From positions 80,518-144,517 of the forward strand of contig JBDRKL010000004.1 of NCBI GenBank assembly GCA_043814055.1: a stretch of 64,000 bases of DNA, given 5' to 3'. Source of the stretch: an archaeon (lineage in GTDB: Archaea > Undinarchaeota > Undinarchaeia > Undinarchaeales > JBDRKL01). The notes beneath the pieces were generated by a model. The model searched no databases and was not told the DNA's origin. It saw nothing but the letters and a program-made list of their open reading frames with translations. This document shows, piece by piece, positions 15,278-64,000 of this stretch (position 1 is the first letter of the stretch; every line of letters starts with the position of its first letter). The position numbers and the translations under genes were made by a program.

Positions 15278-15357
15278 AAATTATACGTGTATTCCCCTGC
15301 CTATAAACTTTCCCCAAAGTTTAATTATTTGAAGAACTTATTCTTCTTTAATGAAAG

Positions 15358-15475
15358 CTCCGCCTGGCCGCGGAGGTGGGCCACGTCGGGGGATGCTCGC
15401 TTCAGCACGCAGCTCGTGCTGAGGCATGCGCTGCGTGTCTCTGCATGCTGGCGCATGCAGATCACTCGATCCCCC
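15358..15475 (-). repeat. Multi-hairpin repeat element
   Basis: Terminal hairpin CTCCGCCTGGCCGCGGAG 15358-75 (reverse complement of 32213-30); nested stems GGGGGAT/ATCCCCC, TCAGCACG/CGTGCTGA, CTGCATGC/GCATGCAG. Confidence 0.75.
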
Positions 15476-15505
15476 ATATTGAGAAAAACATGAAAGCACC
15501 AAACA

Positions 15506-15565
15506 CTCCGCCTGGCCGCGGAGGATGGCGTCAGGGGCATTCGCTCCTTTCAGTCGCGAAGCCCC
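15506..15565 (-). repeat. Multi-hairpin repeat element (type B) flanked by duplicated nre start
   Basis: CTCCGCCTGGCCGCGGAG 15506-23; GGGGC-TTCGC...GCGAA-T-GCCCC hairpin on minus strand; ATGAAAGCACCAAA at 15490-15503 and 15579-15592. Confidence 0.8.
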
Positions 15566-15578
15566 AATAGAGGTTTAG

Positions 15579-16781
15579 ATGAAAGCACCAAATATGTGTA
15601 TAGCCTGCAAAGGCGCAAGAGCCCTATGCGGCAACGAACGCTGTCCCCTACTCGCAAGAGTAAATGTCACGCCAAAGCTCACAGGCAGAATTGGAACCGA
15701 CTTCTTCGGCCCGTCCCCCAGCGTTTTCGTGGGCAGAATAGGCTACCCAAATCTCTATATGGGTCCGCTCGCGACTTTTCAGGAAGAAGAAAACCCTGAG
15801 CTTATGGACACGCCGAGCTCCTGGATGAATATGAGCTATGACAAGATTGTTGAAATGCGCTCAATGCTCATCCGCTCCAAGTCAGTGCAGAACATTTTCT
15901 CAAAATCAAGATTCATTGAAGAGAACCAGGAGCTTGCGCTCGCTGAGCGGCCGACTGATGTTGAGCTGAACTTCTCCCGCGAGCCAACCTACAAGGTCTC
16001 TTTCTCTGACGTGCATCAGCCAATGGGCCCGTCAGCTCCGCTAGAAAAAATGAAAATCACCGAGAACGTGAAGATAAACCGCAAAGTAGACCGCATAGTT
16101 TCAGACGACTTGAAAGCGAACGAGTCAGTGCTCAACCTCTACGACATTGATGTTGACGTTTACAAAATCACCACAATCCTCAGCTCAGGCGCGCTCGGCC
16201 TGGAGCAAAACCAGAAGCTCGTTCCTACAAGATGGAGCATAACCGCTACGGACGATATGGTCGCAAAGAATCTCATTGAGCAGGTCAAGGACTTCAAGAG
16301 CGTGAGTGAGTTCAACGTGTTTGAGTTTGAATACCTCAGCAACCACTTCTGCATACTCGCAATGCCTGGCAACTGGGAGTTTGAGAACTTTGAGGCCTGG
16401 GCGCCGGGCTCGTTCTGGAGCCAGGGTTTGAAGAATACTGCGATTACTGAAGAATACGAATCCTTTGAAGGCCGCAAGAAATACGCAACAGAGCAGGGTG
16501 GCGGCTACTACGCTGCGCGCCTAGGGGTTGTGGAAGGGCTCAGCGAGCTCAAGCGGCAGGCAAGAATTGTTTCGTTCAGGGAAATTTATGAAGGCTACAC
16601 AGTTCCTCTTGGCGTTTGGGTAGTTAGAGAAGCTGCTCGGAACGCTATGCGCCAGCTGCCTGTGAAATTCACAACCCTAAAAGAAGCGCTTGCGCACATC
16701 AACTCAAGAATGCGAATTGACACGAGTGATTATTTCTCAAAGAGCAGGATTCTGAGGCAGAAGCGGCTTACTGAGTATTAA
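15579..16781 (+). CDS. nreA: Nre family DNA repair protein
   Basis: N-terminal CxxCKG..LCG..RCP, LVPTRWSITATD, C-terminal PIP box QKRLTEY. Confidence 0.92.
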   Translation: MKAPNMCIACKGARALCGNERCPLLARVNVTPKLTGRIGTDFFGPSPSVFVGRIGYPNLYMGPLATFQEEENPELMDTPSSWMNMSYDKIVEMRSMLIRSKSVQNIFSKSRFIEENQELALAERPTDVELNFSREPTYKVSFSDVHQPMGPSAPLEKMKITENVKINRKVDRIVSDDLKANESVLNLYDIDVDVYKITTILSSGALGLEQNQKLVPTRWSITATDDMVAKNLIEQVKDFKSVSEFNVFEFEYLSNHFCILAMPGNWEFENFEAWAPGSFWSQGLKNTAITEEYESFEGRKKYATEQGGGYYAARLGVVEGLSELKRQARIVSFREIYEGYTVPLGVWVVREAARNAMRQLPVKFTTLKEALAHINSRMRIDTSDYFSKSRILRQKRLTEY

Positions 16782-45669: not shown

Positions 45670-45729
45670 GGTAGCGGTGCAGCATCACCAATTTGATGCA
45701 CCGCACTTTCCCTCCGCAAGTAGGCGGAG
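45670..45729 (+). repeat. Multi-hairpin repeat element (type A) abutting tRNA-Gly CCA
   Basis: GGTA, stem GCGGTGCA/TGCACCGC, loop GCATCACCAATTTGA, 7-nt linker, CTCCGCAAGTAGGCGGAG 45712-29. Confidence 0.85.
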
Positions 45730-59604: not shown

Positions 59605-59678
59605 GGGACTGTAGCTCAGCCCGGGAGAGCACCAGACTGAAGATCTGGGTGTCGGGTGTTCAAATCACCCCTGTCCCA
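59605..59678 (+). tRNA. tRNA-Phe(GAA), CCA not encoded
   Basis: GGGACTG/CTGTCCC (U6-U67 mismatch), CCAGA-CTGAAGA-TCTGG, GGGTG-TTCAAAT-CACCC. Confidence 0.93.
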
Positions 59679-59693
59679 CTCAAACCCTTTCTG

Positions 59694-59820
59694 GACCAAA
59701 GGCATTCAAATAGCTCAGTAGCGCTGCAGCATCATTGATTTTATGCACCGCAAAGTGCAAACACGCAAAGCGTGTTGCGCCACACACTTTGTGTGTGCGC
59801 GCCAGCCGATTTTGCGGCTG
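59694..59820 (+). repeat. Composite multi-hairpin repeat element
   Basis: GACCAAAGGCA start, AGTA, stem GCGCTGCA/TGCACCGC with 15-nt loop, linker AAAGTGC, two extra hairpins, GCGCCAGCCGATTTTGCGGCTG (59799-820) identical to reverse complement of 63064-85. Confidence 0.85.
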
Positions 59821-61397: not shown

Positions 61398-63035
61398 TTA
61401 TCTCAACCCTTCAACATCAAACTCAAACAACGTAACAGGATATTCTATACCAAAGTGCGACAAAACATCAGGGCTAACTTCTCCAAAAACTCCAATCACC
61501 TTGTTCCCAACGAGAACTTCCACTACCCTGCCTGGGATGAAAGTTCCATACTCGCACTCCCTGATTGAGTACTTCTTCCCAATATTGTTCAGGAACGCCT
61601 CAACATTCGCCTTTGCCTCTGAGTAGTTCGCTTCCGAATGCAAAATTCCTCCTCCAATTCTCCACACGTTCTTTGCGCCGGTCTCAAACTTGCTGTCCAG
61701 CTGAACCGTGATTCCAATTTCAAAGAGCTTCTGCGGCATTTCCGAGCTCGCGTTCTCCGAGAAGTTCTGCAAGAGCCCAGGGAGCAGTGAAGACCTGCAT
61801 ATCGTGTACTCAACAGTTCTTGGATTCTTAATCTCCGCGACAGGGGTTTCTGGCAAATGCGCTTTTGTGAATTCTTTCTCCTTGTTTGAAAGCACGAAAT
61901 TCACTCCCTCCTGGAACCCAAGCCCAACCATCAAAGTTCTCAGCGTGTTCGCTAACTCGTTCCTCGCGTTCGGCTTTCCAATAGTCCCAATCTCAGGAAG
62001 CCGCGGCTCAAACTTGTCATACCCGTGCCCAACTGCAATGTCCTCAACAATATCAATCGGATGCATCACGTCCATCCTGTACGCTGGCACAATCGCATCC
62101 TTGCCGTCAAACCCAACGCGCATCTTCTCAAGTGCTGCCTTTACTTCGCCCGGCTTCATGTTCAGGTCAAGCAATTTGTTAACATAATTCAAATCCAGTT
62201 TCATCCTCTGCGGGGTCAAGTCAGGGGTTGTAACAACTTTCTTATCAGGATAAATCGCCTTCACTTCATAAATCTCAGCGCCCCTGTCTGCAAGCGCAGT
62301 TGTAACCACGTTCATCATTTCCATAACTGGTTTCCACGCGGTTCCGGTAACCTCTATGAACATGTTCTCAGTGTCTTCTCGTATCCTGCCGAACTGCGCG
62401 TTCGTGTAAGGAAGAACAGCCATTGTGTTTCCTTTCGCGTCAATGTAAGCAGGGTATTCCTTCCAGTTCTCTGCGAGGTGCTTGTATTCCTGCCCCTTCG
62501 GATGTTGCTCCTCAACCTCTTTCACAGTCATTTCATCATTAAACAAAAGCGGAGTGAACTTGTAATCCGGCTTCACAGTTGTGTATTTCACAGGGAAATT
62601 AATATCCCCTAGGTGATATGTTCCCATAGCGGCTTTCTTTCGGTTTCTTCCAATTGTGAAAGTCAATTTATCCTGGAGTTGCATGAACCCTGCAACAGTT
62701 TCCTCAGTGAACTTGTAGCCCTTAACAACTGCAAATGCGGCGCAGCCTCTTGTTCCCAGCACGCTCTTGTCAACGTGAACGTCATATTTTGACTTCTTTA
62801 CTTCATACTCTGGCAGACCTTTCTTAACGCCCAAAAAGCCCTGCACGCCCCGCGCGAACCCTTCAATTGAGTACATGTCCGGCCTGTCAGGCGTAATGTC
62901 AAACGATACAGTTTCCTCGTCAAGCCCTTCAAGTGTAAAGCCCATCATCGGCAGAACGTCAGAGTACTCACGCTTAGTGAGCGTCTTTCCTATAAGCCCT
63001 TCCAAATCTACGCGGTTGAAATTTAATACTGCCAT
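61398..63035 (-). CDS. pheT: Phenylalanyl-tRNA synthetase beta subunit
   Basis: DITPDRPDMYS, YRMDVMHPIDIVED, GEVSP. Confidence 0.96.
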   Translation of the reverse strand: MAVLNFNRVDLEGLIGKTLTKREYSDVLPMMGFTLEGLDEETVSFDITPDRPDMYSIEGFARGVQGFLGVKKGLPEYEVKKSKYDVHVDKSVLGTRGCAAFAVVKGYKFTEETVAGFMQLQDKLTFTIGRNRKKAAMGTYHLGDINFPVKYTTVKPDYKFTPLLFNDEMTVKEVEEQHPKGQEYKHLAENWKEYPAYIDAKGNTMAVLPYTNAQFGRIREDTENMFIEVTGTAWKPVMEMMNVVTTALADRGAEIYEVKAIYPDKKVVTTPDLTPQRMKLDLNYVNKLLDLNMKPGEVKAALEKMRVGFDGKDAIVPAYRMDVMHPIDIVEDIAVGHGYDKFEPRLPEIGTIGKPNARNELANTLRTLMVGLGFQEGVNFVLSNKEKEFTKAHLPETPVAEIKNPRTVEYTICRSSLLPGLLQNFSENASSEMPQKLFEIGITVQLDSKFETGAKNVWRIGGGILHSEANYSEAKANVEAFLNNIGKKYSIRECEYGTFIPGRVVEVLVGNKVIGVFGEVSPDVLSHFGIEYPVTLFEFDVEGLR

Positions 63036-63040
63036 TTTAG

Positions 63041-63063
63041 ATGTACGCTGTCTCCCTCAGCCA
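63041..63063 (-). pseudogene. Displaced duplicate of pheS 3' end
   Basis: ATGTACGCTGTCTCCCTCAGCCA identical to 63154-63176; ends ATC TAA one base before pheT ATG. Confidence 0.9.
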
Positions 63064-63124
63064 CAGCCGCAAAATCGGCTGGCGCTTTGTGCTACGTTCG
63101 CTCACTTCGTTCGCGAAGCAGCAC
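63064..63124 (-). repeat. Multi-hairpin repeat element (type B) between duplicated pheS ends
   Basis: Minus strand GTGCTGC...GTAGCAC stem, linker AAAGCGC, CAGCCGATTTTGCGGCTG abutting the duplicate. Confidence 0.8.
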
Positions 63125-63149
63125 TCTTTAGTTATGTTATTTTGTGATA

Positions 63150-64000
63150 TCATATGTACGCTGTCTCCCTCAGCCATTTCAAATCATTCTTGTAATAAAA
63201 GTATCTGATGTCTTTCAATCCCAAGGCAAGCATTATCGGCCTCTCCAGGCTCAAGCCCCATGCAAGCACAGGCACGTTAATTCCCAAGGGTTCCGTAACC
63301 TCTGGCCGGAATATTCCAGAACCTCCTAACTCAATCCATTCCCCAATTGATTCCATCCAAACCTCGGGTTCAACGCTCATCTCTGTGTACGGGAAATACG
63401 AAGGCCTGAACCTGATTTTTTCAAAGCCCAGCCTCCAGAAGAACTCTTTCAAGTAACCAAGATGGTCCTTGAAAGTTGCGTTCTCATCCACAACAATTCC
63501 GTCAATCTGGGTGAACTCTGGCAAGTGCTTGTAATCAACTGTCTCGTTCCTGAAAGTCCTTCCAATGGAAAAGACCTTCGCGGGCGGCTTGACCTTTGAA
63601 AGCCACCTTGCGGAAACCGCAGTGCAGTGAGTCCTCAAAACAGGGTTCTTTGCAATATCTGGGGTCCACTTATACCCCCAGCCGCTTGAGTTTTTCACGC
63701 CTTTTTCATGCGCGTTTTTGACATTCTCAACTATCTTCGCGTCCGGCAGCTTGGACTCTTTTGGATTCTCTAGGTAAAAAGTGTCTGCCAGGTCGCGGCA
63801 CGGGTGGTCCTGGGGCTGAAACAGCGCGTCAAAGTTCCAGAAGCTTGATTCAACAACCGGCCCGTCTGCCTCTTCAAATCCCATTTGCAAATAAATCTTC
63901 CGTATTTTGTTTGTCGCAATCGTGAGCGGATGCAGCTTGCCGCCAAAAACCTTGGGCACTTCCGCGTTCAAGTCGTATTTCCTGAATTTTTTGCCTTTCC
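63150..64000 (-). CDS. pheS: Phenylalanyl-tRNA synthetase alpha subunit (5' truncated by window edge)
   Basis: FWNFDALFQPQDHP, RNETVD..HLPEF, PSYFPYTE, GGSGIFRPE. Confidence 0.97.
   Translation of the reverse strand, partial: KGKKFRKYDLNAEVPKVFGGKLHPLTIATNKIRKIYLQMGFEEADGPVVESSFWNFDALFQPQDHPCRDLADTFYLENPKESKLPDAKIVENVKNAHEKGVKNSSGWGYKWTPDIAKNPVLRTHCTAVSARWLSKVKPPAKVFSIGRTFRNETVDYKHLPEFTQIDGIVVDENATFKDHLGYLKEFFWRLGFEKIRFRPSYFPYTEMSVEPEVWMESIGEWIELGGSGIFRPEVTEPLGINVPVLAWGLSLERPIMLALGLKDIRYFYYKNDLKWLRETAYI

Follow-up and report, generated by a model that had tools for sequence, protein, structure and literature searches.

How can a stretch of non-coding DNA come to lie within an essential operon and leave both of the neighbouring genes intact? 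The question is raised by the phenylalanyl-tRNA synthetase genes of an Undinarchaeales genome, located at the end of the 64,000-nt stretch of DNA that we analysed (hereafter, the window): here, a 90-nt insert bracketed by a 23-nt direct repeat separates pheS from pheT, and neither gene is interrupted. The features of the junction, in window coordinates, are as follows.

63150-63998, minus strand: 3' part of pheS (alpha subunit), which continues past the window end; Pfam tRNA-synt_2d, E 6e-88
63154-63176, minus strand: 23-nt repeat, active copy (W L R E T A Y codons and the AT of Ile), contiguous with the pheS body
63041-63063, minus strand: displaced copy of the 23-nt repeat, fused to the pheT side
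63036-63040, minus strand: what is left of the ancestral junction (the C of ATC, its former stop TAA and the 1-nt spacer A, followed by the pheT ATG)
61398-63035, minus strand: intact pheT (beta subunit) ORF; Pfam B5 and tRNA_synthFbeta (beta-chain CLM domain)

The C-terminus of PheS is W L R E T A Y I, and the TGA stop lies at 63152-63150. Reading along the minus strand, AAA TGG CTG AGG GAG ACA GCG TAC ATA TGA is followed by the insert and then by the displaced end, TGG CTG AGG GAG ACA GCG TAC ATC TAA A ATG, which terminates in the pheT start. The repeat itself, TGGCTGAGGGAGACAGCGTACAT, is matched at 23 of 23 positions between 63176-63154 and 63063-63041, with a spacing of 113 nt; since only ~6e-7 exact 23-mers repeated within 700 nt would be expected in 64 kb (our own arithmetic), it is not due to chance. 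A first-pass annotation of this DNA had proposed that the last 23 coding bases of pheS are duplicated. The duplication is exact, although its description as the pheS end needs amending: the repeat finishes one base short of the end of the final sense codon, and the final A of that codon, together with the TGA, forms the first bases of the insert. Extending the repeat by 6 nt gives 27 matches in 29, where the active copy has ATA TGA and the displaced copy ATC TAA; both differences are silent, and the earlier reading of an active end YI-TGA and a displaced end YI-TAA, one base before the pheT ATG, is confirmed. A look-up of the exact PheT protein gave no match elsewhere, and the only hit in a metagenome scan was 37% identical.

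The pheS–pheT junction in related genomes

The equivalent junction was inspected in nine relatives, namely the two with the closest pheT found by protein search (L065, 75% identical; L067, 72% identical) and seven genomes of the same order (pheT 51–59% identical). None of them carries the insert. L065 reads CCG TAC ATA TAA A ATG GCA GTT across the junction and L067 reads CTG TTC TAATG, and both contigs have the same local gene order as here (pheS, pheT, a PRC-domain gene and a minD-like gene). In the seven same-order genomes, pheS adjoins pheT as TAAATG or TAATG. Two further genomes have a different gene upstream of pheT, yet the same TAAAATGGCAGTA, and the covariance model of the insert family (see below) has no match at the relatives' pheS–pheT loci. 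The first-pass annotation had anticipated an empty site of the form TAC ATC TAA A ATG, from which L065 differs by a single base; the contrary outcome, element-free relatives with a TGA-type spacing, was seen in none of the nine. The end of pheS in L065 combines the ATA of the active copy with the TAA of the displaced copy.

These empty sites indicate that the tight TAA junction came first and that the spacing of 113 nt is derived. The old pheS end is the copy now fused to pheT, and the working end is the one next to the insert leader; the empty allele would read GCGTACATCTAAAATGGCAG directly 3' of the pheS body. The comparison of junctions places the insertion after the split from the relatives whose pheT is 72–75% identical, and, for a locus known from a MAG assembly, we take the insertion into this essential operon junction to be real and relatively recent.

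Anatomy of the insert

The insert encodes no protein and is divided into four parts, which were the same whether it was folded as DNA or as RNA.

63125-63153, minus strand: leader, 29 nt, A-rich and unstructured, ATGATATCACAAAATAACATAACTAAAGA
63089-63124, minus strand: hairpin 1, 36 nt, a predicted fold with compensatory base changes in the alignment
63082-63088, minus strand: 7-nt linker, AAAGCGC
63064-63081, minus strand: hairpin 2, 18 nt, CAGCCG-ATTTTG-CGGCTG, which defines where the insert ends on its 3' side and directly adjoins the displaced repeat
59694-59820, plus strand: related modular copy downstream of tRNA-Phe (59605-59679)

The leader opens with A TGA, four bases that finish the Ile codon and serve as the stop of pheS, and the leader motif TGAT(A)T(C)ACAAAA also starts another family copy, at C7:33886. 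The outer stem of hairpin 1 is variable and 7 bp long, and its inner stem (TTCGC/GCGAA) is conserved; the hairpin also has a one-base bulge, tandem G.A pairs and an ACGAAGT mini-hairpin. Hairpin 2 abuts the displaced copy without a gap, precisely as the first-pass annotation had it. Adding four linker bases to hairpin 2 gives a 22-nt block (63064-63085), an identical version of which, at 59799-59820, terminates the copy downstream of tRNA-Phe. There are no terminal inverted repeats: the ends of the insert, ATGATATCAC and CGGCTG, are not inverted copies of one another. With respect to an archaeal intron, no bulge-helix-bulge motif was seen in the minimum-energy fold of 63030-63185. A search of Rfam gave nothing at gathering thresholds for the insert, and the matches at E≤10 were at chance level. 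A reading as a C/D-box sRNA (ATGAT...CTGA) was dropped, having no Rfam support and a fully structured interior.

Translation of pheT after the insertion

Termination of pheS now occurs 113 nt upstream of the pheT start, and no good Shine–Dalgarno-like sequence is present at the right distance from the pheT ATG (GAGGGAG lies ~16 nt upstream). The leader is, however, open in one frame, its other two being closed by TAA triplets.

63037-63153, minus strand: 38-codon open frame, MISQNNITKECCFANEVSERSTKRQPILRLWLRETAYI and stop, whose ATG overlaps the TGA of pheS and whose stop is the old TAA

This frame spans the whole insert, enters the displaced copy in the frame of pheS and stops one base before the pheT ATG. 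From this arrangement, stop–start coupling would have been either lost or relayed to pheT by the putative 38-codon frame; it could serve as a ribosome relay, or it may have arisen by chance. A special significance of the ATGA overlap that results from the two silent differences was rejected, given that 132 of the 251 TGA stops in the genome are preceded by A.

A family of two-hairpin cassettes

The closest relative of the insert is a copy 3' of tRNA-Pro (C12:133086-133159), which is 84% identical over 80 nt and is bracketed by an exact 22-nt repeat of the tRNA 3' end. In an alignment of 12 copies, 99.5% of the pair cells are paired, as against 36–47% when the pairing is slid by a few columns, and 10 of the 18 pairs display compensatory changes, indicating that the structure has been maintained. 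A covariance model detects 31 copies at E≤1e-3 in the 0.98-Mb genome, in both orientations relative to genes, and 0–7 copies in other genomes of the order (Undinarchaeales), with none in other orders of the phylum; the family is thus one that has expanded in this lineage. The copies form a mosaic of modules, and the family is undescribed, being without an Rfam match and having a core sequence that was not found in the literature searched. The first-pass annotation invoked the same mechanism as at the archease gene: this holds at the level of the class, as the two loci share the modular hairpin family, the polarity and the zero gap, although the covariance match to the archease insert is weak (E ~0.7).

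A maintained structure would also be expected if the insert were not mobile at this locus, but a selected intergenic RNA structure acting in the processing, stability or termination of pheST, and, in a MAG, an assembly artefact has also to be considered. We regard either as very improbable: the insert is missing from the junctions of nine relatives, and the 31 copies are dispersed, stand in both orientations relative to genes and have no Rfam counterpart. An artefact is further opposed by the recurrence of the same architecture at ~20 loci in the genome and, in another family of the order, after the orthologous tRNA-Pro.

The latter locus (L026, genome G011, 870-1100) comprises tRNA-Pro, a hairpin cassette and then a partial copy of the tRNA 3' end, GGGGCTACT; the presence of a cassette at this site in two families reflects either recurrent targeting or an old insertion. 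Elsewhere, antisense family copies are found in long tRNA introns of 84–193 nt (C12:115016-115203, C6:51029-51297 and C12:117681-117863). One intron-bearing tRNA gene is typed by ARAGORN as tRNA-Pyl(cta), probably as an artefact of the intron.

Flanking repeats and polarity

Direct repeats with a score of at least 11 flank 21 of 41 model hits, compared with 2% of 400 random sites, and most of these repeats begin between −3 and +6 nt after hairpin 2 finishes. At pheS the repeat is 23 nt long, and at the other copies 17–83 nt, with identical core blocks clustering at 17–34 nt. Its sources include the 3' ends of tRNA-Pro, -Ser, -Glu and -Val, the 5' end of tRNA-His and the ileS/tRNA-Ile junction; among protein genes, it derives from archease, thermosome, a gene at C4:51336, two gene junctions on C7, the start of a GAPDH-like gene on C7 and, at window position 15579, a gene start of which three copies are stacked. 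The tRNA repeats start in the T-loop, and at tRNA ends there are perfect repeats of 20–25 nt that take in non-coding flank. All of the ~15 gene-terminal events examined run from gene body and repeat through leader, hairpin 1 and hairpin 2 to the displaced repeat, and this polarity is uniform for 3' and 5' ends and for tRNA and protein genes alike; a transposon inserting in random orientation would be expected to produce it about once in a thousand times.

Several of these loci merit individual description. In window 15352-15600, three starts of one gene are stacked, namely ATGAAAGC, ATGAAAGCACCAAA and the active start at 15579, with the reverse complement of hairpin 2 directly after each displaced start copy; the presumed promoter is now ~230 nt upstream of the active ATG. 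A second operon-junction event (G000 C7:14605-14740) has a 37-nt repeat with two mismatches: its active end reads EEL-TGA and its displaced end EEI-TAATG, overlapping the start of the next gene, and a frame, ATGATGATG, spans the insert. At C7:33836-34081, there are three spellings of one C-terminus (ending ALELWE, ALALWK and ALELFKA); between them lie two homologous cassettes, and the differences between the stems of these are compensatory. Lastly, five repeat-free copies (window 45675-45729, corresponding to C4:126192-126246, and C9:49974, C12:34867, C13:17377 and C6:51298) have hairpin 2 within 0–1 nt of a complete tRNA gene. In sense orientation it touches the mature 5' end of the tRNA, and in antisense orientation the reverse complement of the encoded CCA 3' end.

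Codon changes and the origin of the repeat

The two copies of a gene end can be compared codon by codon. Across seven protein-gene termini, 31 of the codon changes between active and displaced copy are synonymous or stop-to-stop and eight are non-synonymous, the latter mostly conservative. Random substitution in the same sequences would be synonymous in 19.5% of cases, and neutral decay of a duplicate formed in situ predicts that non-synonymous changes outnumber synonymous ones by at least 1.5 to 1. The ratio of 31 to 8 instead implies that both copies at these termini diverged as working gene ends, in different lineages, and were joined later. In-situ duplication followed by neutral decay is therefore rejected by the codon test for the class, while it may still apply to pheS taken alone, which has 23 identical bases and two silent differences within the last six nucleotides. 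Read in this way, the codon pattern points to recombination that would have imported a gene end together with the cassette, and for the pheS repeat, too, the codon-preserving differences seen in the family would favour such import over a true target-site duplication. Several events have an identical block of 17–34 nt on the hairpin-2 side followed by a diverged block; gene conversion adjacent to the hairpin is one possible cause.

Two observations weigh against import: the pheS locus is equally well explained by an in-situ 23-nt target duplication with an element-borne A-TGA, and the perfection of the tRNA-end repeats, inclusive of non-coding flank, is what in-situ duplication predicts. Moreover, import needs a donor in which a cassette already lies behind pheS, and so it leaves unexplained the first insertion into a 1-nt spacer, for which a true 23-bp duplication with a stop carried by the element fits better. 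Such a classical duplicative insertion would employ an enzyme acting in trans, with nicks staggered by ~20–30 bp, a fixed end at hairpin 2 and a variable 5' end; fill-in would create a true 23-bp target-site duplication, and the A-TGA of the element would close pheS. It is the simplest route by which two genes 1 nt apart could be kept intact, and it agrees with the exactness of the 23-nt repeat, with the perfect tRNA-end repeats and with the clustering of core block lengths; the leader motif common to another copy suggests that the stop may indeed be element-borne. On its own, however, duplicative insertion gives no account of the codon-preserving divergence at seven other termini, nor of the strict polarity, terminal inverted repeats are lacking and none of the six enzyme families searched for (below) was found. 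We consider it the main alternative, though an unlikely one.

A proposed route of integration

The chances seem to us about even that a cassette passes from one related lineage to another joined to a gene end, and that host recombination within this end integrates it and displaces the resident end downstream. On this proposal, integration would be polar and of a recombination type, as opposed to cut-and-paste by a transposase that recognizes terminal inverted repeats. Pairing within the gene end would let in a cassette already situated behind a pheS end in related DNA, through a Campbell-type single crossover if the incoming piece is a small circle or through homology-anchored illegitimate joining if it is linear. 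The joint after hairpin 2 would fall 23 nt upstream of the resident end, which would consequently be pushed downstream. Both genes would remain intact, and the cassette itself would behave as selfish DNA. No recombinase, circle or donor allele was observed.

The search for an enzyme covered six families, in a genome of 82% completeness, where an enzyme may have escaped detection. Within this genome, a six-frame search found no match to the Y1 transposase (PF01797), with positive controls, and there was likewise none to reverse transcriptase (PF00078), Cas1 (PF01867) or GIY-YIG. Tyrosine integrase (PF00589) had no match at E≤0.01, not even to a XerA-like gene, with 14 of 14 controls positive, and TnpB gave only a sub-threshold domain match.

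Two further explanations have been weighed against recombinational import. Template switching of the MMBIR type, in which a stalled nascent strand copies a hairpin module elsewhere and resumes 23 nt upstream on its original template, dispenses with an element enzyme and accords with the variable repeat lengths and the modular mosaic of the family; very stable hairpins can stall polymerases. Nevertheless, there is no microhomology at the joint between hairpin 2 and the repeat (GCGGCTG/TGGCTG, as against GAAA/TGGCTG in the target), and neither the diverged, codon-preserving copies nor the precise end at hairpin 2 is explained, so that we judge it improbable. Less probable still, and in our estimation barely credible, is an origin at the level of RNA, whereby a hairpin RNA would be ligated or circularized onto processed RNA ends, copied into DNA and recombined into the genome. 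The placement of hairpin 2 within 0–1 nt of mature tRNA 5' ends, or of the reverse complement of CCA, in five repeat-free copies is in keeping with it, as are the T-loop starts of the tRNA repeats and the tRNA introns formed by family copies; against this, no reverse transcriptase was found in the genome, and the gene-start events are antisense to the gene.

Comparison with known systems

Integrases generate att duplications at the 3' ends of tRNA and protein genes, as with phage 21 and e14 in icd, and Williams is reported to have described, in 2002, a T-loop sublocation used by tRNA integrases. The cassettes resemble these in several ways: in both, the layout leads with fixed polarity from gene body through repeat and element to a displaced part of the gene end, the end that the element supplies is synonymous though spelled differently, and the tRNA repeats run from the T-loop to the 3' end. 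The cassettes differ in being only 60–110 nt long (90 nt at pheS), in lacking an integrase and in targeting gene starts as well. Hence, of the features that define a tyrosine-integrase element, an att-like core repeat at a gene end with fixed polarity is present and the integrase gene is not. A comparable replacement of gene ends is brought about by mobile ORFs in fungal mitochondria (Allomyces atp6), where the element brings an in-frame end and the resident end is left as a downstream relic; those ORFs encode an endonuclease, whereas the pheS–pheT cassette encodes nothing.

REP/BIME sequences and the MITE/PATE derivatives of IS200/IS605 are, like the cassettes, short, structured, extragenic, multi-copy, hairpin-based and non-autonomous, but no Y1 transposase or RAYT was found to accompany the cassettes, and these have no terminal inverted repeats. 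IS200/IS605 elements make no target duplication, in contrast to the long repeats that flank 21 of 41 cassette copies. A MITE of the DDE type would have terminal inverted repeats and a fixed duplication of 2–10 bp instead of the 17–83 nt seen here, and integration of the casposon/Cas1 kind is at odds with the absence of a Cas1 family integrase from the search results. The fixed 3' end, variable 5' end and variable repeats recall a SINE-like, target-primed retroelement, but reverse transcriptase was not found. Homology-facilitated illegitimate recombination, which de Vries and Wackernagel reportedly described in transformable bacteria in 2002, combines one homologous anchor with one illegitimate joint and would give polarity, variable repeats and a donor-derived active copy; it is not known to make a joint at a fixed hairpin end, nor to be the means by which a repeat family propagates.

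The double-hairpin elements (DHEs) of fungal mitochondria offer a further analogy. They occur in Allomyces, chytrids and Schizosaccharomyces, are tiny, protein-less and mostly intergenic, comprise two GC-rich hairpins and are presumed to be mobile; sequence identity across species suggests transfer, by a mechanism given as unknown (PMC10085805, citing Paquin et al. 2000). The cassettes share with them the two adjacent GC-rich hairpins, the non-coding character and the dispersed copies. DHEs are organellar, however, and presumably unrelated to the cassettes in sequence, and no long polar gene-end repeats are reported for them; the cassettes are set apart by conserved loops, compensatory stem changes and bracketing gene-end copies of 17–83 nt.

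The family joins features that have not been described together: no enzyme in the six searched families, strict polarity, a hairpin-defined end, long gene-end repeats and codon-preserving differences. The pheS locus illustrates that a 1-Mb DPANN genome tolerates selfish DNA in an essential, translationally coupled synthetase operon, provided that the insertion carries or copies the gene end. Were recombination-driven import of cassettes to prove correct, archaea would have a new route for gene flow and for the replacement of gene ends, one whose products, namely relic gene ends, spurious ORFs and rewired operon junctions, are misread by annotation pipelines. For testing the mechanism, the empty and filled pheS–pheT junctions provide a clean, datable pair.

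The hairpin-1 core in unrelated genomes

The 21-nt core of hairpin 1, TTCGCGAACGAAGTGAGCGAA (window 63094-63114), occurs verbatim in 29 stretches of unrelated genomes (L035-L063), where about one would be expected by chance. The hosts are several Halobacteria, one Acidobacteria MAG (11 contigs), Actinomycetota, Alphaproteobacteria, Parcubacteria and Ca. Tritonobacter; one viral contig also carries the core, with no sign of a viral vector. The two-hairpin model (R1) has no match in the genomes that share the core, so that only the 21-nt module, and not the whole cassette, is held in common. As a tentative and rather doubtful generalization, we suggest that the cassettes may represent a new, enzyme-free kind of mobile DNA, in which a two-hairpin module with a copy of a gene or tRNA end moves between lineages and integrates at that end by host recombination, with displacement of the resident end, hairpin 2 being the end of the molecule and the hairpin-1 core being shared across the two prokaryotic domains.

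In all of these stretches, the core is located within a variable outer stem, often beside tRNA or tmRNA genes: it lies directly 3' of the CCA end of a tRNA in Alphaproteobacteria and within the tmRNA gene of Tritonobacter. In one of the Parcubacteria (L047), it is situated between the 3' end of a tRNA and a 21-nt displaced copy of that end, which starts in the T-loop.
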